28,478 bases of DNA from Xylographa opegraphella (taxonomy: Eukaryota): contig JALDZX010000013.1 in assembly GCA_022813865.1 (NCBI GenBank), positions 434,001-462,478 of the forward strand, written 5' to 3'. Made by a program: the position numbers and the translations under genes. Positions 1-23,910 of this stretch are shown piece by piece (positions within the stretch are counted from its first letter, which is position 1; each line of letters opens with the position of its first letter). The notes below the pieces were generated by a model that had not been told where the DNA came from, did not search any database, and saw nothing but the letters and a program-made list of their open reading frames with translations.

Positions 1-1661
1 CCTGCAGGCGCTGCGATAGTGCGTGCCGAGATCTTAATTGTGCCACCAGTTCCGAAGAGTCGAGCGCGGCGTTGTTGAGGAGCGTGGTGGGGATGACGAG
101 GAGCGCGGCGGCAAAGGCTCCGATGGCGAGCTGCTCACGGGAGCCGACTGTGCCGGCGAATTCTTCAAGATATATATGCAGCGCGGTTTCCACGGCGCCA
201 CCACCAGGAACGATGCTCCCGCTCTCAAGGGTACGTTTAACAGCCGAAAGAGAGTCGTGGACGGAGCGCTCCATCTCGTCAAGCTGGTAGTCGTTGGAGC
301 CGCGGAGAATGATTGAGGCAGAGGTATGGACTTTCGTGCCCTTGACAAGGATACACTCGTCATCGGAGATTTTCTCCTGAGAAACCTCTTCCGCATGCCC
401 GAGGGATGATGCAGCGAAGTTCTCATCGCCGTTAATATCCGAAAGGGAGGCAACAAGGGTGGCACCGGTGGCTTTGGCAATTCGGCGGAGGTCTTCCTTC
501 TTACAGCGACGGACAGCCATGGCCCCTTTTTCTATAAAAAGCTTTAGGACCAGATCATCGATGCCTTTGGTGGTGAAGACGACGTTGGCGCCTGCCTTGA
601 GAATCATTTCCACACGCTCAATGACCATGCCTGCTTCTCTTGCACGAATCTGCTCGAGCTGCTGCGGGTCATCAATGGTGATTTGCACTCCCAGCTTCAT
701 GCGCTCCTTTTGCAGGTTCATGTCCAGGCAAGCGATCTTGGCATCCATGACACGGGTTTTCATGGCCTGCGAGGCCACGGTGCAGTTCAGTGCGTAACCC
801 TTAACTAGGATAGATTCGGTAGAGCTTTTTCCGTGGGCCTTGAGCACGTTGACTGCTTTGACAGGATATCTGATTTCATTACGGTTGTTTGTGGATTTGA
901 CGGATTGCATAGCGTTGACGACCATATTAGCGAAGAATTCAGAGTCGGATCCGATGATCTTGCTAGACATTGAGGTTGTAGCGATGTTTATAAGGGATTC
1001 GCGGCCGAGGTGCTCGACTTTGACACTGATGTTCTCGTTCATGTACTTGACGGCTTCGCGAAGAGCTAACCGGTAGCCAGTAATGATTGTAGTGGGATGA
1101 ATGCGATTCTTGACTAGTTCGTTCGCACGTCGTAAAAGCTCTGCTGCTATCAGAACGACCGAGGTGGTGCCGTCACCAACCTGACCTTCATTAGCCAGCC
1201 CCTTGGATTGCTTGCAAATGCCATACTTCTTTATCTTGTTGTTGCGCCAGATCCACCAGTATCTTCCCAGCAGGGTGCTCTATCTCCAGTAGACTCAAGA
1301 TCGTGGCTCCATCATTTGTCACCGTGACATCCTAGAGCCATCAGCTCTGGTAACAATTTTCCATACACTTCCTTCGCCTACCCCAATATCGTCGACCATC
1401 ATTTTATCCAGTCCAGAGGGTCCGAAGGAGCTTTTAACCACATTTGCTATGGCTTGTGTCGCAAGAACTACCTCTGAGTTAGCCGAAGTCCTTAGAAAGC
1501 GTAGGATACCGGCAAGTACCGTTCTGGTCTCGTACATCTGCTCCACTGATCTTGGTACCTCCAAGAACTACCACGATTATCAGCTTTTGCCGAGATGGGG
1601 GAAAAAATCAGCACTGACACAAAGTACCGGCATTCCGGGGTTGCTCGAAAATATTTGACAT
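1..1661 (-). CDS. TCP1: T-complex protein 1 subunit alpha (CCT-alpha chaperonin); 3' end lies beyond the window
   Basis: ATG at 1661. The spliced N-terminus reads [71 protein letters not shown]...GDGTTSVV, which are CCT-alpha motifs. Four short GT-AG introns (last one 1226..1181), then an open exon 1180..1. Confidence 0.96.
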
Positions 1662-1915: not shown

Positions 1916-3857
1916 ATGGCCGACCATAGTGCCTCCGAACTTGAGAGCAGAATGGACTCGACGAAGCTCGCTGATGCTGCTGCCCAGGTAGAACCCCAAG
2001 AGATTTCCAAGAGTGCTGCGAAGAAGGCCGCCAAGCAAGAGAAGCTGGCCGCGGAGAAAGCGAACAAATCTACGACAAACACCACCAAGGAAGCCGGTCG
2101 GGCAGAGGCCAGGAAAGCCGTGAGCAAAACACCAAAGAAGAAAATAGAAGGAGCGGCCTTAATTGGGATCGACGTGTCGAAGGAGGAGGACTTTTCTGGC
2201 TGGTATCAACAGGTCTTGACCAAAGGAGACATGCTAGACTACTACGATGTATCCGGTTGCTACATTCTAAAGGTATAGACCTACTCGCAACTGTTCTTCT
2301 TCTCTAACGGCAGCCCAGCCTCCGTCGTACTTCATCTGGGAAGAAATACAGCAATGGTTCAACCACCGGATAAAAAAGCTTGGCGTCAAAAACTGCTCAT
2401 TTCCAATGTTTGTGTCACAAGATGTTCTGGAGAGGGAGAAAGATCATATCGAGGGCTTCGCGGCAGAGGTCGCATGGGTTACACATGCGTATGTCAATTC
2501 CTCCTAGAGCCTCAGCTATAAGCATGGACTAACTGCATTCGCAGGGGCAACACTCCGCTTGAGAAGAAGATTGCCATTCGTCCCACATCAGAAACTGTCA
2601 TGTACCCTTACTACGCAAAATGGATACGAAGCCACCGTGATCTACCCCTAAGACTAAACCAGTGGAATTCTGTAGTGAGGTGGGAGTTCAAGCATCCACA
2701 GCCGTTCCTCCGTACTCGCGAGTTTCTTTGGCAAGAAGGTCATACTGCTCATCTCACTCAGGAAGGAGCGGGAGAAGAAGTCCTTCAAATACTGGACTAC
2801 TATGCTGGTGTCTACGAAGACTTACTAGCCGTTCCCGTCGTCAAGGGTAGGAAAACGGAGAAAGAAAAGTTTGCGGGAGGGCTATATACCACAACTGTGG
2901 AAGGCTATATCCCTGCAACTGGCCGTGGAATCCAAGGAGGTACTTCGCATTGTCTAGGCCAAAATTTCAGTAAAATGTTTGGGATCACAGTCGAAGATCC
3001 TTCTGCCAAAGAAGGCGAAAAGAAAGCCCCATTGCATGTCTGGCAAAATTCATGGGGTCTGTCGACACGTACTATAGGGGTTATGGTAATGATTCATGGA
3101 GATAATCGAGGCCTAGTGATTCCTCCACGAGTTGCAGAATACCAGGTTGTGATCATTCCGGTCGGTGTTACAGCCAAAATGAGCGACGAAGACAAGAATG
3201 GGCTCTACGACCAAGTCGACGCACTTGCTACGGTTCTCCGGGCATGTGACTTACGTGTCGAAACAGACAAACGTGACGGCTACTCCCCAGGATGGAAATT
3301 CAACGAGTGGGAGCAAAAGGGGGTACCGCTACGCCTCGAGTTCGGACCGGGAGAGTCAGATGGGCATTTTGTCACTACATCCCGACGAGACATTGCTGGA
3401 AAGGAGGGTAAAGGCGCCATTCCCATAACTGAGATTAACACGGAAATCCCAGCCTTGCTTGAGAAGATCCAAGCAGATCTCTACGCCCGAGCTGATGAGA
3501 CTTTCAAGGCTCACCGCAAGGTCGTCACGTCGTGGGACGAGTTTGTACCGGCGCTGAATGCTAAGAATGTAGTTCTGATTCCACATTGTTTAACAGAAAA
3601 GTGTGAAGATGAGATCAAAGAGCTGAGTGCAAGGAAAGAAATCGGTGACGAGACCCCGCAGGACGAGAAAGCGCCGAGTATGGGAGCGAAGAGTTTATGC
3701 ATCCCGTTTGATCAGCCTGAGGGTATTGTGAAGGGAGAGACGAAATGCACGAATCCGCAGTGTAAGAACCTGGCGGAGCAGTGGTGTATGTTTGGAAGTA
3801 AGTACTCATCCTTGTGGTTTTCTAGAGTGATACTAATAATTTACAGGGAGCTACTAG
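1916..3857 (+). CDS. Cytosolic prolyl-tRNA synthetase (eukaryote/archaeal type)
   Basis: Exons 1916-2272, 2319-2488, 2545-3797 and 3847-3857. Motifs [33 protein letters not shown]...[33 protein letters not shown] and C-terminal MFGRSY*. An alternative start is possible at 1952. Confidence 0.96.
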
Positions 3858-5928
3858 CTTCTCCAACGTCGCTTGTCAAGGATCAGCGTGCGGCTATCTC
3901 CTAGGTGGTCAGCTGTTGACAGGCGAATTGTTCGATCTGAGATAACTCGTATACTCGTATATCCGATAACTCGATCTACGAAGAGATACGAAGAAGGAAA
4001 TATGGCACGCGTGTGTTCAGCGAGTCAATGACTACGTCGAGTTTCGGCCCACTCAATGGTCCTGATAGGCCTATAACTAGAGCAGCACGAACCTGAAAGA
4101 TACTCAAGTACCATCCCCGTAACCCTCTCAACTACAGCCTTGAACTGTGACAAGAAAGCTTGGCTGTGTCCTAGATCAGACTCAGGTGTTCTGACCTATA
4201 CGTTAAGTAGTGACCACCCTAGTTGTGGTTGTTAGAATAAGGCCAACTGCATGTAAAATAGGTTGACCAGTCGTGCAGGTCCGGTTTCTGATTCAGCATG
4301 CATATTATTGATTCTTGGCTGGAAGTCCGAAGGTACCACCATCGTTTCAACAATACTTTTCTTTTCTTTCTCTGCCTATCTCTTTCCGTCCAACCATACC
4401 AATGTGCTATAATGGTTTCGTTGAGTGACTTCCAAAAGCGTTTGTTCTCAATTTCCAGTTTTTCAGTAGAGGCGCTGAATGAACTAGTCCTCGATGTATC
4501 CTCCTGAAAAATAAACATAATTCTGATTACTGATGTTGTTTCTCTTCTGTGGCTTATTTGATGGTGTTGCTACTAAAACTTACTTGTGAAGTCGGAAATC
4601 ACAAGTCTGGTCTCTCTACAGATCAGACAAGGCAAGGAGGTGGGCAGGGTAAGACTTGCATTCTTGGAAAAGTTCAAGCTAACTTCACAGGTAAGGCCAT
4701 TCGGGGCTGGTGAGATTGCTTTTAAGTGTTATATCACTGATCGGCGGTGGTGGTTCGTACTTGTTAAGCCGGGACCAGTGGCAGATCTAAGAATAGCGCA
4801 AATGAGTAGAGGACGGCAGGTAGGCGATATTACAATACCCAGCAAAGGGCGAGCATCAACGAAGATGGTGGCTACCCAAGTAACAAATTGACCGTTACGT
4901 GTTTCAGCTTGAAGTGTTGCAGATGGAAGTCGCTTGCAGAGCAGGATGAGTGGATATTGCATGGAAGCCAGACGAAAGCTGTAAGGTGTCGTGCAATCGA
5001 GGCGTCAACCAGGTATCTTGTGGAAAATCGACATCTACGATGCAAGCCGCCGGCAGATTTCACGAAATTACTTGTAAGGTAAATGCATCCCACCAGGAAA
5101 AAGGCCATATCAAATTACACAAGAGACAGCAGGTGAACCTCCTCTATTGTAGGCAAAGTTTCTCAATGGTTTTCAGCCGGAAATACGCATGCACCGTAGC
5201 TCCCGGTACTACCGAGCCAGCTCTGAAGGATATTGAACGGCTCTTGACTCATCGGCAACTGCAAGGTGGCTTTTGGATACATATTACTCTATTCGACAAG
5301 AGCCCTAAGGTATTCAATAAGCTCGCTTGTTTCTGTATCGCATTTGGCTGGTCGAAAGCTGGTCTGGTCAGGGGGCCGCCTGCACTGGTATACTCGATGT
5401 CAGTCAATCTTCTGGCATTTAGCCATAAACACAATACATAGCACGATAGTAACGCAAACGGAAGCCAAAGATTCGTGAATTTGAAGAATGGCGATCCGTA
5501 TACTCTTGTACTACTGATTCTGAGGGTTTCGAATATCGCAAACCCCTCATCTTCCCTTGTAGACAAGCTGTATATGTGCTTGCAGTCAAAGTCAGTCAGC
5601 ACACTGCTAACAAAGTCGAGCAGCAATCCTGGTAGTCATATTGTAGGAAAAGCCGCTGAGCTTGAGGGGCTGTGATAACTTGATAATGAATGGACGGTTC
5701 GATTACCCACCGAACCTGAAAGTTAACTCCCACATGCAATATGCTGCTACCACATTTACAACAATATCTAAGCCACAATAATATGATCAAATGTTTGGAT
5801 GAGACCATATAGCTCGACCCAAACGATACAAAGGTGTTGAAAGCCATCGTTGATTTCCAAAGATTGTTACATAATGATAGATATTAGAATCTGATTTACA
5901 CAGCTAATTCTTCGGTTGTGTAGTGTAG

Positions 5929-5981
5929 GTGGGTTATCGGCGTCCCAACGTTGTATTTCTCCCTGCTAACTGAGGCAAAAG
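5929..5981 (+). other. Spliceosomal-type intron 1 in the tRNA D-loop (between positions 15 and 16), 53 nt
   Basis: Donor GTGGGT, identical to the Ras intron 1 donor at 10416. Branch GCTAAC at 5965-5970, acceptor AAG at 5979-5981. Removal restores the A14-G15-A16-G18-G19 D-loop. Confidence 0.78.
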
Positions 5982-5999
5982 AGGTTATCACATCAGATT

Positions 6000-6050
6000 G
6001 TACGAGTTCGATTGACTGCCACTTTCGCTCAAAATACTAATTCCCCTCAG
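6000..6050 (+). other. Spliceosomal-type intron 2 in the tRNA anticodon loop (between positions 33 and 34), 51 nt
   Basis: Donor GTACGA, branch TACTAAT at 6035-6041, pyrimidine tract TCCCCT and acceptor CAG. Removal joins U33 to the UUG anticodon. Confidence 0.85.
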
Positions 6051-6054
6051 TTGA

Positions 6055-6061
6055 ATGAATC
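6055..6061 (+). other. Canonical 37/38 tRNA intron (ATGAATC, 7 nt)
   Basis: Lies one base 3' of the anticodon. Its antepenultimate A can pair with U32 (anticodon-intron pair). Confidence 0.75.
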
Positions 6062-6108
6062 TTCTGGATACCCCGGTTCGAGTCCGGGCACGACCTTAGT
6101 GCTATTAA

Positions 6109-6114
6109 TTTTTT
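6109..6114 (+). terminator. RNA polymerase III T6 terminator
   Basis: TTTTTT begins 13 nt after the tRNA discriminator base. Confidence 0.7.
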
Positions 6115-6271: not shown

Positions 6272-6956
6272 ATGGTGCGCAATGTCCAAAGCAAGCATAT
6301 CGCGTATCTAATACGTCTCGCAGGCCTCAGAGTCTCGCCTTTACACCTTCTCACCAGCAACAACTGCTGATTTACGCAAATTCCGCCTCGGGACATCTCG
6401 AGCCAAAGATCCTCAAGCGGTGATATGTACGTCTTGAGTAATCATGTTGATGTATGCCGAGCCAGGCCCCTTTCTTATATGTCAGCAAGCAAGTCATTCA
6501 AAGACTCAATGACGTTTTCTTGCAAGCATATGGCCCAGGCTGACTATTGTTCTTCAGATCAAATTGACAAGCACACTCTCGAGATCGCTCAAGCGGACGA
6601 TGTCACATACACGAATATGCAGGAGCTAGCAAACGAGCTTCCAGCTCATTCACCACGCTATGTATTACTTAGTTATCCGTTGACTCTGGTGTGTGCTATT
6701 TTACTTTGTTCTTCACGGATCAAGAAGATGGACTGAAAGAATGGCATATGGATCTAACATGGTGAAGACTTCCGGAAGATTATCAGTACCATACGTGATG
6801 GTATACTATTTACCAGTAACATGCAATGCAGAGCTGCGCATGCTGTACGCCGGAGCAAAGGAGCTGATGCGCAACACCGCGGAGGTCGGGAGGGTCATAG
6901 AAATGGCAGATCCGGAAGATCTAGAGGAGATTGAAAAGAGGCTCGGAGGGGAGTAG
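6272..6956 (+). CDS. Glia maturation factor (GMF/Aim7-like) ADF-homology protein, Arp2/3 regulator
   Basis: Exons 6272-6274 (ATG only), 6324-6426, 6558-6688 and 6768-6956. Product MASESRLYTFS...LRKFRLGTSRAKDPQAVIYQIDK...ELANELPAHSPRYVLLSYPLTL-TSGRLSVPYVMVYYLP...RMLYAGAKELMRN. Confidence 0.92.
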
Positions 6957-11226: not shown

Positions 11227-12068
11227 AGAGGACCGCGGATGGGGTCAAAAAGGAAAGTTGGAGATGGAAATGGAGCGAGGTTGAAGATGCTCTCGATGAA
11301 CGATGAACCTTCATGGCCGAAGCGTTTACCAGAAGGGGTCCTGCATTATCTTGCCACATCATGTCCAGCAGAGTCCTCGCGATATATGCGAACTTTGTTT
11401 ATCAGGTGTTCTTCGGCTCTTCTTGACTATTTGCATGGGGTCTGGTCTTAAAAAGAGTGTGTTTCTGGAAGTTAGAGGGGCGTTAGGTAGCGTTATCTTC
11501 TTGCCAATACTATCCTCCTGTGCATTCATCATGAGGATTGCGACCACGCCTACCACGATCAACCCAAGGTGACCCTTCCTTCAGTTGGCAGCTATGTGTT
11601 TCATGCAATGGCATGGTCATCGCAAAGTCTGGCCCGATGATTGGATCTCAACTTGTTTCTCTGCCGTCCGATAGCTTTGGAGACCAACGTAATGCACGAC
11701 ATCCAACATGCTTGTGCCGTCGGGACTGAGGCCGTCTCGAAAGTCCAATCGGATGCAGAAGATCATTGAGAATCCATTTCTGGACCTTTTGCACTGTCCA
11801 GGAGCCGGTGTAGCCACGGCGTAGTAATGCATTATGACCCATTGCCCCCCCCCAACTGTACTTGTTCCTCCATCTCGGTGCCTTCGTCAGCTATCCTCGA
11901 CATGACCTTCGTCGATGCCTACGGCCGCTCGCACCACCTGGTTTCGGGAATCCAACCCTCCATTCCTCCGGGATTTTCGTCCCACCTCACCGCTCCCCAC
12001 CCACCTCATGTGCTCCCCGCCCCTGATGCCTCAATACCACATGAAACATCGGCGCTTTCTGCTCCTCC

Positions 12069-12083
12069 NNNNNNNNNNNNNNN
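12069..12083. other. Assembly gap (15 N) next to a poly-C tract
   Basis: Run of N in the sequence. Confidence 0.99.
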
Positions 12084-13313
12084 NCCCCCCCCCCCCTCTC
12101 TCGCCGCCAACCCGATCCTCGATGCTCCAGCGCCACCGGTGCCGAAAACCCGCCAGCACTGTCAATCTCAAATCCATCGTCTGCAGCGCCGTTTCATCCT
12201 GCCTGCTCCTCATCGCAGCGGCCCTTCCCTTCCCTCCCGCCCCGTTACGTGGTCGCGATCGCACCTCCCTGCAGGGGGCTGTGCCACGGTGGCGGGGGGG
12301 AAAAACGCTAGCGGCTTACCTCGGGAGCGGCCACTTGCGGCGTTGATAAAAGCAGTGTGGGATAGGCATTAGGTAGACAACAGGAGACTCGAGAGCAGCG
12401 TTGACGACGACGGGTGCCAAGGCGTGCGAATACATACCTCGGGTGTATGATTGCGGTTTCATGCTCACGTACGGAGAAGATACTGTGGAGCAGGGAAATC
12501 GAGGTCCCAGACGCGGACTCGGAAGGCCGGGGATGGGTCCGCTAGTCGGTTAGCCGACGGGGAAGGGTTGCGCTGCTGGAAGCCACCACGTGCAGTATGG
12601 GGATGCATATACGTGTGGGAAATGGGCTTGATCGATGGGTGGAGAGATGCTTCGTACATGTCCGGGGGTTGCAACCCGTCCATGGCAGGCATCGTTATCG
12701 TGCTACTATCCGGAATAGTCATGGTAAGTGCATGGTGGGGGAGACGTGGCGTGGCGTGGTGGGATATCTGATGGAGTGTGGAGTGTAGAACGTGGCGGTA
12801 TGGGAGGCTGCTCGGTGGTGGTGGTTGACGTGCATATACCTACGTAAAGGTGTGGGTGGGATGCATGTTGGTGGACTGGAAGTGAGATTGATATGGAAGG
12901 GCGTCCTTTATTAGTGGTGGAATTGTCGTCGCGGCTGCATTGCCTGATGAGGATTGGCGAAAAAGGCAATCATCACTGGGCCTCTCTCAAATCTTGAATT
13001 GCCGGATTGAGGTCTTCGGCTGAAAGCCACGTGGTCATGCGTGAGGATGGAGGTTCTGAAACATCGTCTACTGTCCATATTGCCCCGATTGGCGGGAATT
13101 CTACGTTTTTCCACTGTGAGCCTCACGTGTAGCCAGCTAGCGTCTGTCGGGGTCTACATTAATCGCAAGTGCGGTTGCAGCTGAGTGGTCGCAGACAGCT
13201 TAGCCTTTATCTGTGAGACTGCTGAACTTCCCGTTGAAGACTCAAATACATCCACGACTTCCAATATGATTATTATTCAGCATGGTGTGGGCGAACTTTC
13301 ACAAGAAGCTGCT

Positions 13314-15438: not shown

Positions 15439-16756
15439 ACGAAGCTCACCTTAGACTCGACGGTTTGGGTCTGGGTCAAATCGAAGGGAGAATGGATGTA
15501 ATGGCTTTGACAGCTTGTGCTTCCTTTCCACCCCGCGAGTTCTGAGTTGCATATGACGTATGTATTTACATTAACCTTAATTACCTTAGTCTTAGCCCCA
15601 TTTTATAGCCTAGTCTATTTCGAGCTAAAGTAATTGCTAGTGGGCCTTATCAGAAACACCGATTTTTGTCGATTGTACTCGTACTGGACATCCAGATGGA
15701 ATCAATGATTCTTGTTTAGATGAGACGAGCATGCTCGAGAACTAAAGTATCCTCGCCTCCACTAACGTTAATCCTCGCAGCTGCTCTCTCACTCCTGTCA
15801 AGCAATAATTATCAGAGCTCGAACAGCCCGGAGGTCTGGTCAAGTCCAACCCACTGGAGTTGGTCTCTCATCCTTCAGATTTGGAAAGTCGTGAATGAAA
15901 TTTCCTACACGTATGGTGATGGCTGCCTTCTGCAGAAAGCCTGAGTTTAGCTTTGCTGTTTTCTGAAATACTTTCTTTGAGTTTGGACCATCTCCACTTC
16001 AGAGGAGGTCTTTTGAAACTCTTATCCCGTATGTGAATCATGGATCGATACATTTATTTCTACCGTGCAAAACATGACAGTATTTTCGTGCTATGTGAAT
16101 CTGGAAGTGAATGTATGAAAATTCACTCTGCTACTGTACTAGCTTATGCGAAGTTTCACAGTCGCGAACCATCAATTTGGGATTTAGAAAGTGTTTAGTC
16201 CCCTTCAGACAGAACAATAACTTAGCATTAAAGGATTATAGCGACTCACGATTTGCCTTATCTTAGGATCACAACCTTCAGTAGTAACAAACCGGAATAG
16301 GGACAGTATATCACGACATTAACCAGATGATATACAGTGCAGAGCCTACTGATCCGAACACAACCTTGCCATTCATACTCGCGGTATCAAGCACCTCTGG
16401 TCATCCTCTCCACACATCCGGAGCTCTTTAATACTTCGGAACGGAAACTCTGACCCTACCTCCAGCGTCAAACCTGCATCGGCAAAGCCAGATGTCAATC
16501 CTGTCATTGTCTTTAGCACCATGCTTGTAAGGTAATTATCCCTATTCTTCAGCGCTGAATGACCGAAAGCCGTAATGTTCACAATTGTCACATCGTCTTT
16601 GTTTGTTTTCTCTAACAATAGTCTTGTGTTAATAAATCTTGGCTACGTACCTGCTCCACAAATGTTTTCTCCTCAAAACAACAATTATCTTCTGTTTTCT
16701 TCCATGACTACCATTACTGTACTGACTAAATTTGCAGCTTTCCGTTCCATCAAGAC

Positions 16757-17797
16757 ATGGACACTCTATGCACTCTTGACCAAAGAATGACTTCAATTCT
16801 GGACGAACGAAAACCCTTACAGTACGCCGAGGACGATGAAATACACGCAACAACACAGGTCTCAGAGTCTTCAGACAGCCTCAGTCTCAGTTCCGAAACT
16901 AGTACTACTTCTTGCAGGACATCTATAGAGTTCCGCTACGGAACTCAAGATTATCCTGCGGCCACAGCCTCCACATCCATCAAAGCCCTCGACCTTGCTC
17001 TACCAGAAGCGATAGAGAAGCGTAATGGGCTTCTAGTAAATAGGTGGCCTCATAGCTGGCTGGAGATCAGACAGCATAACTACCTGGCAGTAGAGATGTA
17101 CATATCAAGATCCAGCAGGATGTCGGAAGACAGTTCTGTCAGTATTGAAGATCTTGAGACTCCCGAAGATCTGAAATGTGCTGATGACCTGGAGTGTGCT
17201 GAAGACCTGGAATGTGCCGAAGACCCGGAGTATGCCGAAGACTTTGAGACCGCTATGAAACTAAGATTCGGGGATCGGCGAACTTACTTTCACCACCTCA
17301 ATTTTCACAATCAACCCGTCTACCATAAGTCATCAACTCCACCGGAGGTATCACTTTGGTTAATCATAACTGAAACAAACCCCAAATCACGATATTCGCT
17401 GTTCTGTCGTGAATTGGTCATAGCTTCTCAGGCAGGAAAGCTTATCGACCCAGTACACTACCAAGGACCCGAGGAACTCCTGGAATTAAAAGGCAATGCA
17501 CTCCGGAATGCCGTCACAGGCTACGTCGACATAGCGTACCGGCCGTTGGGAACATGGGGTCGGGATTATTACAGCTCGGATGAGGTGGTGCCTGTTTGCT
17601 CAACTACAATTTATAACTGGTTCGATGGAGAATATAACAGAGGCCCACCAAAAGGGTATACTATTCGCTCATGCGATGGAGATGTTCTCATTAACGACGA
17701 CGGCCGAGTACACTTAACGCAACAAACCTCGGCAAAGGTCGCAAGCAAATCCAAGCTTTGCATAGTCCAATGTGTGGACGACAATCAAGAGTCGTGA
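16757..17797 (+). CDS. Uncharacterised acidic protein, paralogue of the 19822-23910 locus; possibly a truncated or pseudogenised copy
   Basis: 346-aa ORF. Its C-terminal ~160 aa align by eye with ORF 21033-21728 (HHLNF..QPV, P.VS.W, AGK..DP, ELKG..L...VTG.VDI.Y...GTW, DGD...NDDGRVHL). Confidence 0.65.
   Translation: MDTLCTLDQRMTSILDERKPLQYAEDDEIHATTQVSESSDSLSLSSETSTTSCRTSIEFRYGTQDYPAATASTSIKALDLALPEAIEKRNGLLVNRWPHSWLEIRQHNYLAVEMYISRSSRMSEDSSVSIEDLETPEDLKCADDLECAEDLECAEDPEYAEDFETAMKLRFGDRRTYFHHLNFHNQPVYHKSSTPPEVSLWLIITETNPKSRYSLFCRELVIASQAGKLIDPVHYQGPEELLELKGNALRNAVTGYVDIAYRPLGTWGRDYYSSDEVVPVCSTTIYNWFDGEYNRGPPKGYTIRSCDGDVLINDDGRVHLTQQTSAKVASKSKLCIVQCVDDNQES
17147..17254 (+). repeat. Coding minisatellite, 6 x 18 bp
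   Basis: Encodes EDLETP EDLKCA DDLECA EDLECA EDPEYA EDFETA. Confidence 0.9.
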
Positions 17798-19821
17798 AGG
17801 AAGACCGCTGGTATATAACTATGATATAGGTGAATAGTCTTTTCCTGGACACAACTTCCAAGGAGATTATGGACCAAGAAGACCGTGAAGACACAGTAGG
17901 GATTGTTCAATGGTATTCAAGGATGCCCTGACTGCGATACCTGATTTTGAGACAGAATCGGAGGGGTACATCTCAACGGCACAGCCAAGGTAAACATGCA
18001 CTACGCCACTGCTATCAATGGCAGTAATATGATCTGCAATACCTCTTCTGCAGCGTTCTACGGGCAAAAGTTCACGAAGGGCAACACTCTCCCAGTCTTT
18101 TTCAATAGTGGCTCTGTGACAGATTTTCAAGCAGAAGTTCGGTGGAAGAGCAACAGCAAAGAGCGAGGTCGCTCCAGGTTGCATTGAGAGTCAAGCAGTA
18201 GACTTCTGTCGAAAGGCAATTTTGAGCCATCGGTTGGCTTGGGAGTGACAAATTTGAATCGCTCGCATGATGGGATTGATAAATGAGTCACTGTATCACC
18301 GAAGCATTATTGCTCACGATTAGTACAGCACGATTTCGTTGTGTGGTTTCTTGGGATGAATGAGTCCAGTAGCAGTTTATGGGACGAGTCAATTTGGAGA
18401 TCTGGGTCATCATACAGAAAAATACGATGCAAAAAGATCACACACATAACACCTGTGTGAAATTCAGTAACGTAAGACTAGAATAATACTCGTTATCATG
18501 TCATTGCGAGCCCATGTCCTATTCTACTGTTGTGTGATCAGATGCAAGGATTGACAAGTCTGAAGTAGCCTGTACGGCAACCTCATGCGATTTGAATCAG
18601 GAAAATCAGGCTTTGACCATAGTCTCGGAGCTCTTGAGCACTCTGCTTTCTACGAGATAAGATTTCATCATCCTGTAAAGGCAGTACGGCTGTTGATCCG
18701 CCGCTTGCGTATGCTAATCTGCAATGTTGTGAAATAAGTCGGACATATTGTCACACGTACTGAGAAATTTTTCTTTACTTTTATGTACTTGGGACCTTCG
18801 ATGATCCGAGGTATCACATTTGGTAACTGCGTACATGATGATGTGTGCTTTTTATCGGCTCTCGCGGAAGTTGCTTGGTGTCCATTATGATTCAAGGTTT
18901 GCTCACAGTATGGAGTTTGTTTGTGAAGTAAAATCATCAATTCTATGCGTTAGTCTATTTCGAGTGACGACGGACTTATGACAGGAGCTGCTAAACTTAA
19001 GTATTTATGCTGTCCCGTCCTTTACTGTTGTTTCATTGTTTCTCTTGTAAATACTATTCTAATAGATATTCTTCGGTATCTTCGCTCAGCTTCGCAGTGG
19101 TCTTTGTAAATTGCACACGTTTAGGTGTATTCGAATTGCTTTTGGTATATTCGAAAGCACTTAGCTCATAGAATCTGTATAGTGCAATCGAGTTCGCGTT
19201 CCAAATGAGTTTATATTGGTATATCTGTCACAGTATATATGAGGATATGTATGCTGATGTGTTCTGAACATCTATGTTTTGGCTAGTGTGGTATCATAGC
19301 TGTGGTGAAAACTATTTCTATAACAATGTGTTGATAAGATCGCCAAAGGCACGTGAAGTGTCATGAGTCACCGGTATACTACCGTGGGAACCAGTAGGGA
19401 CTTTGACTGTGGTGAATCGCCGCTTCGAAGGTGAACAGCAACCAGGAAACATGGTGTGTTAATGGTGTCTCTCTTGCCAGTTGTATGACTTCTCTTCTGT
19501 TTTGATCCTTCTTGTTTTCTTCTCCTCCTTTCACACACACACAATATTCAAAACGTTCATGCTCAGCTATCTGAAGTCTGCAAACAACTTCTTACACTTC
19601 ATGGAAGGTTGTCTACTACCATTAGTGTTTCAGTTCCTGCTCAAGCACACAGGTTCTCCTTCCACTCTACTTTTCCACACTCACGTCCACTGCACTTCCT
19701 GGTAGTGATTCTTATCTTGAAGCTAGTAATATTTGGAAGAGTAACACTAAGTTACCTAATCTATCTCTACCTCTACACTTACAACGACCTCTATTGTTTG
19801 TTCTCTCCATCTTCTACCACG

Positions 19822-22800
19822 ATGGCGGCTTCCTGGATTCCCTTCATATTCGCAACTCTTCAATCTCAGGTGAGCATCAACTCCCAGTTCTTCCACGACC
19901 CATATTACGAACCTATAAACTGTATATACATTTGAAACTGACCTCTGTTTCCTAGGCTTACAAACTCGGAAGATATGTTGCTGCCGGTTCGTGGTGTGAA
20001 ATAACCCGAGAAGAGAAGGTATTCATAAAATGTCCTACGTGTAATGATCATGACTAAGCCAAACAGATTGATTTCCAAAACTCGGATGGCCTCAATTTGC
20101 AGCCACTAAGAGAATACTTGCTTGTCGACATTGCTTTGGTAAATTTACGCAGTGCCATGTACGGCTCAGGTCGATTTCTTCTGCCTTCCGAATCACCGAC
20201 ACAAGCAATATCTACGTACTGTGCAATATACAATGAAGCAGCTGGATGGTTCGAGGTTTCGGTACGAGGAAACCTTCGAACACATCACGCCAAGCAAGAA
20301 CTTGGGGTATCAGAGGGTATACTACTCGAACCCAACGATACGGAGGATTGTTTTTTACCACATTCCCAAGCATACCCGCTGAACAACACTACCGCTGCAG
20401 GCGGTATGGAATATTCATCTTCTTCGGAGGCACAAGGCATCATTGGCACTCCGGAGATATCGAAACCTTCTGTGGTTCCTATCCCATCGAAAACTTCTGC
20501 AACGAAGGACAATGTAGCAGCTCCAAACACAGTGGCCCTTGTCCTTAAACATTCCACGGAGTCACTTTCTCTATCCTCTTGTATTTTGGACGCTCCTTCC
20601 GTCCCAGCTTATGCATACTACGAATCGAAATCTGGCTGTGACTGGGCTTCAATGCTAGATGATGAAGATGAGGAAGAGTCCTACGCTTCTCCATATTATC
20701 ATTCGCCCAGTGGAGAGGACTGCGCGATGATTGATGAAGAATACCGGTTCGAACACGATGACAGAGTGGTAACTCCTCCTGTTATGCTGCCTGATACGCC
20801 TGACCACGTTGCAATCGATGGATCTCGAACCTGTGTATCTACTGCTCCAATGGTCGAAACGTCTCCACGGCATACGAGTTCTGTCCTCGTCGCTGTAAAC
20901 AAGAAACATCCTTCGGCCACTAACATTGGTATCGAGTCCCCATTGCCAAACCTTCGGCAGTACATCCCGTAAGATACCACAGCAGCTTTTGAGAAGGTTC
21001 TGGCTGAGCTTGATCCGAAACATCGCCAAACTATGGCTGGTCGCCGATACGCTCAAGGCGTTGTTCACTGGCAGTGGATGTGCGAGGCCTCTGAACAACT
21101 ATTGGCGTCAGGGCGAGGCCGGCGAACTCGCTTGGAGGAATCCGATCGGTCAGTAGGCTGGTTTGGGGTGGACATTCATGAGAATAGATCTGCGAAAGTG
21201 TCTCATAGCCCCGCCTCTGATCCTCGAGTTCCAAAATCTCCGAAGCCCATCCATCACATCAACTTCGCTGGCCAGCCTGTACATGAGAGGACATACACTA
21301 GCCCAGCAGTATCATTTTGGGCAGCCACGAGTGAGGGTTTGAAGAATCGAATTGATCACAATGGGTCACTGCTCCGTTCGGTGATTTCTTCAAACGCCGG
21401 AAAAATGCTTGACCCGTTCATCGGTCCATCAGTTGCACCAGAACTGAAAGGTTCCAAGCTTAAGGAGTGGGTCACCGGAGCCGTCGATATTGTTTACCAG
21501 ACATATGGAACTTGGATAGAGGATGAGCTAGAACCCGATGATGATCGCCGAATTGCTGATGTGCCATGCTGTTTTGCTGGATGTGAGGATATAAACTGTC
21601 CTCCAATTCCATATATCATCGACCTCTCGGACGGAGACATTGTGGTGAATGATGATGGTCGTGTTCATCTGGGACAAAAAAGCCAAAGAGGAAATGTGTT
21701 CGACTGCGCTCGAAGCTTTGCAGGGTGACGAATATTAGCAGGATGAACGCAGAAGACCATACTCCTCTATCTACCTACCCCGAGAACTTCTACACAGTGC
21801 CATCAGATGCTCTCGATGCTCTGTTTATGGAGACTACTCCGGAGGTGTCTATCAATATGCCGGCGCTGATACTTGAGACGATCAGCAGAGACAAACTTGA
21901 GTACCAAGCTACTTCTTCGCCTATACCAAAGGAGACCGCATTCACGACTCAGCAAATGTCAGATCGACTATTCGCTTTATTTTCTGAATTCGACGAAGCC
22001 GATGACATGGCTTCAAGCGAAGCAGAGCCATTAAGTGCCGAAGATGAAAATATATCATCACTGTCTACAATATGGGAGCATACAGAAGATCAGGAGTACG
22101 AAATGTCGACGTGCTTTCGGATCGACCTGGACTTATCGATGAAAGCCACATTACAAATCCCTGTCACTAATTTCAAGGACGCCTCAGAGGATAGAGCTCC
22201 AGCTTTGTTCGGGTTAGATGATACTTTGCTCCTACAAGCTTCTGTAGTCATCTCCAGTGGTACGAGACAATGGAAGTCTTTCACTATACAGACGGAAATG
22301 TTCGATGCCGTGGTACAGGAAAATCCTGAAGTCGAATCAAGCTCACAGTCAAAGACATATTCAGATCCTTCATCCACATATTACTGACAACACTAATATG
22401 TCAAGTGATCGTATGCTACACCAAGCAATTATCTCTATACAGGATCTGGCTATCTTGAAGATGTTCAGCCTCTTCAGTTTTGACCGCGCGACTAATGAAA
22501 GCAATTTATCACTATCCTTCGCTACAAAAAAAAGACGTTTTATATGCTTATATTGCGATGCATGAACCAGGTGTTAGCTCCCGAGCTACATCACTGGTCA
22601 CAGATGCTTACAAGACAAAAACGGTTGATGCGATTACATGGCCACTCGAGGAATTGGGTTACTTTGCTATCAAGGCAAATGAGGAGGAAGCACCCATTAT
22701 TCAGAGCACTCCTATTATTATAACTAACGGGAAAATTCCGTTTCCTACCAACATCGAAGTACAGTCACCAGAATGGGCCGAAGAGTACTGGATAAACCAC

Positions 22801-23910
22801 GAATCCCATATCAATTTCGAGCACAATAGGAGTTCAAGTGGCTCTCTGACCGACTCTGATCTCGAAGGATTCAGTTCTTCCCTTTGTAGCACAGAGTCTA
22901 CTGGATCTGATGCCTCTAATGGCACAAATGAATCAGATGGATCAAAATTTCTCACCCCGGATTCGGTGCCGAACTCTTTCAACTCATTCAAACCACCGAG
23001 AAAATATATAAATGGCCAAGGATTTGATATAAATGATTTACTGGAAACGGATGACACAGTAACTGAATCTGTTTTTGATGCAGGGCAAGGTTCAACTGAG
23101 CGATTTGTACGACCTTGTCAACCAGTGTCTCATATGTCTCATTTTGTGCTAAATGGACTTCTTGTCGCAATGCACCACAAGTTCAAGGACGAGGATAAGT
23201 ACTTCAACTATCATTCTGACGATGAACTGAAGGTTCGAAATGGCGATATCGAGAATTTTTAGTCATCCGATTCTAATGTAAAATCACATAACGACGTATG
23301 TATGCACGGATCAATTAGTGATAGCTTGATCGATTCTGATCCTGTTACCACGACACCTCAAGCTACGAAGGTCTCGACTTATGCAGCACCTCAATTCGGG
23401 AGAAGCTCATTTATTGGCCATGTGATTATTTCCAGAACAAATGATGACGACCAGGCTGTGACAATGAAGGCAGCCGTGGAGGAAAAGCAAATCAAGAACG
23501 GTTCGACACCAGGAATTACTTTAATACGGTCTCCTACAAGCCAAGATTGGGCGAGTCTCAGCCAACCATCCATTTTAATGCTTCCAACTGAAGCACCATC
23601 AATAGGGACGAATGTTTTGGGTTCATCGACTGAAGAGACAAAATTGAGTCTGGGGGAGCGACGGGCAAGAGAACGGGATACTCCCGAAACCCCAGGAATA
23701 CGAACCACTGCTGGAAAAGCCGAAGGTCAAGGCTTCGTACGGTGTCCCAACATCCTGACATCGCGCCTTGAAGATGCAATCGTTGAACCCGTGCCTTTCG
23801 ACTGTGGTGTAGGCTTCTCCCTACCGGTCCCAAACCTCTCCGATTCTTTGCTATATGGTAGTATTGCAGGATATTTGGGGTATCGAATTTTTACTGCATT
23901 ACGACGGTGA
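19822..23910 (+). pseudogene. Large uncharacterised acidic/Ser-rich gene interrupted by in-frame stops and frameshifts
   Basis: Clean 5' exons 19822-19869 and 19956-20018, then 20067 onward (GT-AG introns with branch sites). In-frame TAA at 20970-20972 and TAG at 23260-23262, each followed by open frame. Frameshift near the A6 run at 21676-21681 and further frame changes at about 22380-22535. Confidence 0.72.

Follow-up and report, generated by a model that had tools for sequence, protein, structure and literature searches.

Can a nuclear tRNA gene be interrupted by introns of the mRNA type and still give rise to a tRNA? This question is raised by a locus of Xylographa opegraphella located in a stretch of 28,478 nt, referred to as the window in the following (GenBank assembly GCA_022813865.1, contig JALDZX010000013.1, positions 434,001 to 462,478 of the forward strand). 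Within the window, the parts of a tRNA-Gln(UUG) are spread over 183 bp on the plus strand and separated by two large inserts of 53 and 51 nt as well as by a piece of only 7 nt. Based on the comparisons described below, we put the probability that this is a working nuclear tRNA-Gln(UUG) gene, which would carry two spliceosomal-type introns plus a 7-nt intron at the site between positions 37 and 38 (37/38) and be processed as proposed here, at about one in two. That the spliceosome takes part in tRNA maturation in this fungus, with the tRNA-Gln(UUG) precursor (pre-tRNA) losing two mRNA-type introns and then its canonical 7-nt intron, is a step that we propose slightly more tentatively.

The block layout proposed in a first-pass annotation of the locus was borne out by the sequence (Table 1). 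To obtain the processed product, the three blocks were joined by a script according to their coordinates and the 7 nt following A37 (6055–6061) were taken out. The first-pass annotation had suggested comparing such a spliced form with the raw locus, and the two behaved very differently. While the processed 72-mer was recognised by ARAGORN as tRNA-Gln(ttg), the raw locus yielded no gene with the same program, and a comparison of the raw locus with Rfam gave no match at the gathering score and no tRNA match at E ≤ 5. When introns were permitted, all that ARAGORN offered for the raw locus was a poor Gly(ccc) parse, which covered the same span and included an intron of 101 nt. A cloverleaf with a Gln anticodon was obtained only after in-silico removal of the three inserts. 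In the processed product, 20 of the 21 cloverleaf pairs are standard, the sole exception being U13.U22, which is common to three reference tRNA-Gln genes (L001–L003, see below). The invariant bases listed in the first-pass annotation, i.e., U8, A14, the GG of the D-loop, U33, TTC, and A58, are all legible. Other parses offered by ARAGORN for incompletely processed forms, namely Gly(ccc), Phe(gaa), Ile(aat), and Leu(caa), were rejected, as they depend on D stems that are weak, on extra arms that are long, or on a base other than a purine at position 37, and as the alignment to the reference genes reveals the body of a tRNA-Gln. Apart from the T arm of this locus, the window contains no true T arm, and other tRNA-like ones were not found there either.

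Table 1. Features of the interrupted tRNA-Gln(UUG) locus (window coordinates)
Feature	Position	Strand	Length (nt)	Description
tRNA exon 1	5914–5928	+	15	acceptor 5′ strand, U8 A9, D-stem 5′ strand, A14 G15 (tRNA positions 1–15)
A-box-like stretch, raw DNA	5921–5933	+		last part of exon 1 and beginning of insert 1
Insert 1	5929–5981	+	53	spliceosomal-type; D-loop, between positions 15 and 16; donor GTGGGT; GCTAAC with branch A (by motif) at 5969, 12 nt from the 3′ end; terminal AAG
tRNA exon 2	5982–5999	+	18	remaining D-loop, D-stem 3′ strand, position 26, anticodon-stem 5′ strand, U32 U33
Insert 2	6000–6050	+	51	spliceosomal-type; anticodon loop, between U33 and U34; donor GTACGA; TACTAAT with branch A (by motif) at 6040, 10 nt from the 3′ end; pyrimidine run; terminal CAG
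3′ block (exon 3)	6051–6096	+	46	includes the 7-nt piece
Anticodon UUG and A37	6051–6054	+		Gln(ttg) by ARAGORN on the processed sequence
Putative mini-intron	6055–6061	+	7	canonical 37/38 site; removal yields a 7-nt anticodon loop
tRNA exon 3b	6062–6096	+		U38, anticodon-stem 3′ strand, variable loop, T arm, acceptor 3′ strand, discriminator U
B-box-type element GGTTCGAGTCC	6075–6085	+		single perfect match in the window
T6 run	6109–6114	+	6	Pol III-terminator-like; 13 nt after the tRNA 3′ end

The three reference loci come from a metagenome collection that was scanned with a 24-nt segment from the 3′ part of the tRNA. L001 represents an uninterrupted 72-nt tRNA-Gln(CUG) (58.9 bits on Rfam RF00005), and L002 and L003 (both at 1446–1525) each represent a tRNA-Gln(CUG) with an 8-nt insert at 37/38 (52.9 bits on the same model), differing from each other by one base inside this 37/38 intron and by none in the exons. 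As no synteny with the window was detected beyond the tRNA itself, they were used as references and not as orthologues. The processed tRNA of the window matched L001 at 65 of 72 positions (7 differences) and both L002 and L003 at 66 of 72 (6 differences), and its first 15 nt, corresponding to exon 1, were identical in all three. Differences occur at positions 16, 26, 27 or the pair 29/41, the wobble base 34, 44, and 45; they are located in loops or preserve pairing, including a two-sided change of A29-U41 versus G29-C41, and no stem is broken. Because the differences are few and none of them breaks a stem, the exons are, to judge from their sequence, those of a well-kept tRNA-Gln. The 8-nt counterparts in L002 and L003 likewise indicate that very short 37/38 introns are normal for this tRNA-Gln family. 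As a side observation, ARAGORN misread the tRNA genes of L002 and L003 as Trp(cca) and Arg(tct).

The two large inserts were compared with 17 mRNA introns of the window (between 1181 and 15004), which were set by reading-frame continuity across GT..AG junctions in genes for CCT (4 introns), prolyl-tRNA synthetase (ProRS, 3), a glia-maturation-factor/ADF-H protein (GMF, 3), an FAD-synthase-like protein (2), Ras (2), and a short-chain dehydrogenase (3). The junction peptides of ProRS agree with the Xylographa protein P0001; for the other five genes, the junctions are based on frame continuity together with what we take to be the sequences of the respective families. All 17 introns display GT..AG ends and a CT[AGT]A[CT] motif with its branch A 9–15 nt from the 3′ end, as do both inserts. 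Guanine at position +5 is found in 15 of the 17 and again in both inserts, and a length of 45–60 nt, which includes the lengths of the two inserts, applies to 15 of the 17 (the others measure 79 and 131 nt). The last three bases are CAG in ten introns, TAG in six, and AAG in one, and donors nearly identical to those of the inserts are present among them (GTGGGC, GTGGGG, GTACGT, and GTACGG). Insert 1 also harbors an AG too close behind its CTAAC, in the same arrangement as CCT intron 1468–1519 (minus strand), in which an AG 5 nt after the CTAAC branch A is skipped and the AG at 11 nt is used, only the distal one yielding a protein junction of conserved length. The resemblance to the mRNA introns described in the first-pass annotation could thus be confirmed, as the inserts are indistinguishable from them in length, donor, branch motif, branch–acceptor distance, and acceptor, the sequence hallmarks of U2-type GT–AG introns. 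Apart from that, the window introns show a variable donor position +6 (T, C, or G) and a very tight spacing between branch A and 3′ end throughout. Further copies of either insert, which might have pointed to an introner or an introner-like repeated element, were not found in the window, the best other matches being words of 8–9 nt.

For an estimate of chance agreement, the 17 mRNA introns alone supplied the criteria, namely GT, G at +5, an AG at the end, and the branch motif at 9–15 nt; 13 of these introns satisfy all of them together with a length of 45–60 nt. On both strands, 7 of 56,722 51-mers and 2 of 56,714 53-mers passed, the real introns and the inserts themselves being counted in. 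For each insert, complete splice signals would arise by chance with a probability of about 1 in 10,000 or less, and the joint chance for both inserts is below 1e-8 before a few alternative registers are considered and far below one in a million with a handful of registers. Concerning the boundaries, an alignment to L001 that was made blind to splice motifs gave insert 1 a length of 53 nt, with GT..AG as one of four registers that scored equally well, and exon 2 ended at 5999 in every optimal alignment. For insert 2, the anticodon UUG is placed after U33 only if exactly 6000–6050 is removed. Since the inserts match the 17 introns and the joint chance is very low, both are, by their signals, spliceosomal-type intron sequences.

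With respect to transcription, the locus displays a B-box-type element, an A-box-like stretch, and a T6 run (Table 1), and no run of four or more T was detected between 5800 and 6108, hence none inside the gene. The box assignments rest on consensus sequences that we take to be those of the A and B boxes. The raw DNA still resembles an A box since the D-loop is nearly repeated in the first bases of insert 1, and any role of this stretch would be a presumptive one. Altogether, these features fit a stand-alone gene of RNA polymerase III (Pol III). Transcription, both splicing steps, and their order we infer as follows. Pol III would transcribe the gene from its internal promoter and end at the T6 run, and the spliceosome would remove the 53-nt and the 51-nt intron in the nucleus; fission yeast offers a parallel in its U6 small nuclear RNA (snRNA), which is likewise made by Pol III and spliced by the spliceosome. 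The cloverleaf would fold only after both large introns are gone; RNase P and RNase Z would trim the ends, and the tRNA splicing endonuclease together with a ligase would remove the 7-nt intron, leading to a 72-nt tRNA reading CAA as end product. The presence of two separate introns in one gene of 72 nt would be easier to explain if the gene had stayed in use. In the first-pass annotation, the intact exons were taken as an argument for function. Intact they are, but the argument is weak on its own, because a recent invasion would leave the exons intact as well.

Several points weigh against a working gene of this kind. The acceptor of insert 1 is AAG, which is used by only one of the 17 mRNA introns, and this insert is accompanied by a rival donor-like GTAGGT 4 nt upstream (5925) and by a second AG 2 nt downstream (5983), both of which pass the criteria; use of either would damage the D arm. 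Furthermore, the middle exon comprises merely 18 nt, and the reference genes L001–L003, all of them non-syntenic CUG isoacceptors, lack both large inserts. No orthologous locus was found in collections of genome contigs, viral contigs, and metagenomes, the first two of which contain few or no fungi: the interrupted-D-arm pattern and the 3′ half each gave 0 matches in the genome contigs, and the 3′ half gave 0 matches in the viral contigs. A tRNA precedent was not found in the literature searched either. Finally, the 7-nt intron is below the range of 14–60 nt quoted for budding yeast (PMC10275265; here as in the following, papers given by their PMC number are cited for excerpts of their text).

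One may ask whether all inserts are instead removed by the tRNA splicing endonuclease, the GT–AG and branch motifs being coincidental, an explanation which we regard as highly improbable although nuclear tRNA genes with ectopic and multiple introns do exist in Cyanidioschyzon merolae (PMC3728597). In a brute-force search of arrangements at the exon–insert junctions, a bulge-helix-bulge (BHB) structure was obtained for insert 1 in 0 of 1600 arrangements. Around insert 2, one BHB-like fold can be drawn (4 of 2304 arrangements), but it is out of register, uses two pairs of the anticodon stem, and implies a cut inside this stem, which would be destroyed with no UUG anticodon left. In addition, no excess of folding over shuffled versions was seen for either insert (z = -0.07 and +1.16). 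If the cut were made at the distance canonical for 37/38, the Gln body would end up with GUA as its anticodon and with C37. The coincidence of splice signals would also have to be accepted at the low rate per insert given above. Based on the BHB test, the missing excess of folding, and the GUA/C37 outcome, the endonuclease model was rejected for the large inserts, whereas it was retained for the 7-nt piece as the presumable route of its removal. At 15/16 and 33/34, the eukaryotic endonuclease is not known to cut. In the literature, eukaryotic tRNA introns are placed between N37 and N38 (PMC10275265); like these, the 7-nt piece is found at exactly 37/38 and has its 8-nt counterpart in L002 and L003, and unlike these, the large inserts are found at 15/16 and 33/34.

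The main rival accepts the inserts as genuine spliceosomal introns and sees in the locus a dead copy, i.e., a tRNA-Gln(UUG) gene that was recently invaded by both of them and from which they are not or only poorly removed, the tRNA being supplied by other intact copies. Such an invasion might have taken place via reverse splicing into the pre-tRNA, reverse transcription, and recombination, or via insertion at the DNA level. As an invading intron carries its own GT, branch site, and AG, these signals are no proof of use, and the single sequence of a recently invaded dead copy would look the same as that of a working gene. We consider this explanation possible, albeit with some doubt. In its favor, the reference tRNA-Gln genes lack the inserts, rival donor and acceptor sites flank insert 1, and an intact 7-nt repeat (GGTTATC, see below) fits a young event; yet the 21 stem pairs show no new disruption, the invariant bases have all been retained, and B box, A-box-like stretch, and terminator are all intact. 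Moreover, the branch–acceptor distances fall inside the narrow range of the mRNA introns, and two independent insertions in one 72-nt gene seem unlikely if the first one had already killed it. A different explanation places the splicing in a transcript of RNA polymerase II (Pol II), either a long upstream start of GMF or an unannotated non-coding RNA, from which the tRNA would be released by RNase P and RNase Z or would merely result as a by-product. The spliceosome normally acts on Pol II transcripts (PMC12530127), and the tRNA is located on the same strand as GMF, its 3′ end being 176 nt upstream of the GMF start codon. On the other hand, a Pol III gene that stands alone agrees with the perfect B box and with the T6 run, which follows the tRNA directly, no further intron-like segment was found between 6097 and 6272, and none of the four open reading frames (ORFs) in the gap upstream of GMF could be assigned to a Pfam family. 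Because of a pyrimidine-rich stretch just before the GMF ATG, which looks like a usual fungal start region, the start region of GMF seems to lie downstream of the T6 run, and altogether the Pol II explanation is improbable. Hardly credible, at last, is an artefact in the form of a mis-assembly or of random sequence that happens to permit the parse: though the window does contain a gap of N near 12,070, the locus itself is embedded in ordinary unique sequence between two well-formed genes, and the joint chance calculated above for both inserts speaks against a random match.

As to the origin of the inserts, the GGTTATC repeat is located among the first bases of insert 1 (5932–5938) and among those of exon 2 (5984–5990), almost in register with the splice sites. 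Spotted post hoc, it hints at a local or target-site duplication, at an intron 5′ end shaped to keep the A box, or at a coincidence. The inserts resemble neither each other nor the tRNA nor the flanks beyond shuffles, and the idea that they are degenerate copies of neighbouring tRNA sequence was dismissed, since local alignments did not beat shuffles (p = 0.24 and 0.55); the GGTTATC repeat alone was conspicuous. The gene does not carry CCA after the discriminator base and is therefore not a copy of a mature tRNA. The persisting mini-intron at 37/38 fits an entry into unspliced nuclear pre-tRNA or directly into DNA. Most likely, the introns came in either by being reverse-spliced into nuclear pre-tRNA, which is abundant, or through a local insertion or duplication.

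Spliceosomal introns outside of mRNA genes are known from several systems. In ascomycete ribosomal DNA (rDNA), they were reportedly described by Bhattacharya et al. in 2000 and are said to be frequent in lichen-forming fungi. As in rDNA, the organism is an ascomycete, and the host of the present inserts would be an RNA that is abundant, is no mRNA, is produced by some polymerase different from Pol II, and is interrupted by short GT–AG introns, but while the host there is a ribosomal RNA (rRNA) made by RNA polymerase I, it is here a tRNA of 72 nt with a canonical tRNA intron in addition, so that two splicing systems would act on one molecule. The sole U6 gene of S. pombe contains an intron that the spliceosome excises (Tani and Ohshima 1989, in PMC5855946), and a survey revealed up to four spliceosomal introns in fungal U6 genes (Canzler et al. 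2016, in PMC5855946), which are otherwise unconserved and for which reverse splicing was proposed as origin (PMC5855946). U6 resembles the present case as a small structured non-coding RNA gene transcribed by Pol III, with short introns displaying a canonical 5′ site, branch site, and 3′ site (PMC5855946). Unlike a tRNA, however, U6 has its place in the spliceosome's catalytic centre, which accounts for its being hit. Spliceosomal introns have also been found in U1, U2, and U5 snRNA genes and in rRNA genes (PMC5855946). Likewise, fungal genes for the small nucleolar RNA U3 are non-coding RNA genes interrupted by normal spliceosomal introns, the presence of which varies between close relatives and paralogues (PMC5832005). 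In contrast to tRNA, U3 belongs to another RNA class with snRNA-type promoters and a cap.

To our knowledge, the tRNA introns of C. merolae and archaea possess no GT–AG or branch signals. Their tRNA genes are similar to the present one in having several introns at non-canonical positions and in being missed by standard finders, but they were found via the BHB motif and endonuclease recognition (PMC3728597, PMC3978253), whereas the present inserts failed the BHB test and display a full set of spliceosomal signals. In a paper from 2025, spliceosomal and tRNA introns are called unrelated classes (PMC12530127), and the excerpts of a tRNA review from 2023 name the spliceosome only once, as a contrast to pre-tRNA splicing. 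Similarly, the list of non-mRNA hosts in the excerpt of PMC5855946 comprises U6, U2, U5, U1, and rRNA and does not include tRNA. The first-pass annotation knew of no described spliceosomal intron in a tRNA, and we also found none in the searchable full text, outside of which most subscription journals and supplements lie. Within the literature covered, what would be new is the host class, as such introns in other non-mRNA genes are already known.

If RNA data should show that splicing takes place, these would be the first mRNA-type introns in any tRNA, and tRNA would join the short list of non-mRNA hosts consisting of U6, U1, U2, U5, U3, and rRNA. It would mean that an abundant RNA that lies far from the spliceosome's active site is able to gain and keep such introns, which bears on the reverse-splicing model of intron gain. 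While textbooks and reviews regard the spliceosomal and the tRNA introns as unrelated and place eukaryotic tRNA introns only at 37/38, where they are cut by the tRNA endonuclease (PMC12530127, PMC10275265), two classes of introns would meet here in one tRNA. The numbers of tRNA genes counted in genomes of lichen fungi would then be underestimates, and more such genes would likely be hidden in genomes of Lecanoromycetes, because standard tRNA finders cannot see them.

The locus is located in a gap of about 2.4 kb between the ProRS gene and the GMF gene. The last intron of ProRS spans 3798–3846, with the stop codon shortly after. Its exon 2522–3850 revealed 96% identity to a protein of Xylographa carneopallida, followed by next-best named matches of 85–87% from other lichen-forming Lecanoromycetes, the lineage of Xylographa being Lecanoromycetes, Ostropomycetidae, Baeomycetales; this one protein thus points to a Xylographa-like lichen-forming ascomycete as the host. 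In several records (P0001, P0004, P0006, P0020, and others from lichen fungi), ProRS is labelled 'ribose-phosphate pyrophosphokinase 1', though these proteins carry the Pfam domains PF00587, PF03129, and PF09180, and the label looks like a propagated annotation error. GMF starts with an ATG at 6272, directly followed by the GT of its intron 6275–6323 (plus strand), so that exon 1 codes for the initiator codon only. Further downstream, the short run of N around 12,070, which appears as six X in the translation, represents an assembly gap in a proline-rich region and is included in ORFs 11770–12372 and 11906–12346. The region 16730–23910 (plus strand) contains a row of long ORFs without an obvious family, two of which, 16730–17797 and 20973–21728, resemble each other in a stretch at the C-terminus (…DGD(V/I)…NDDGRVHL…), which suggests that they belong to a local family of paralogues.

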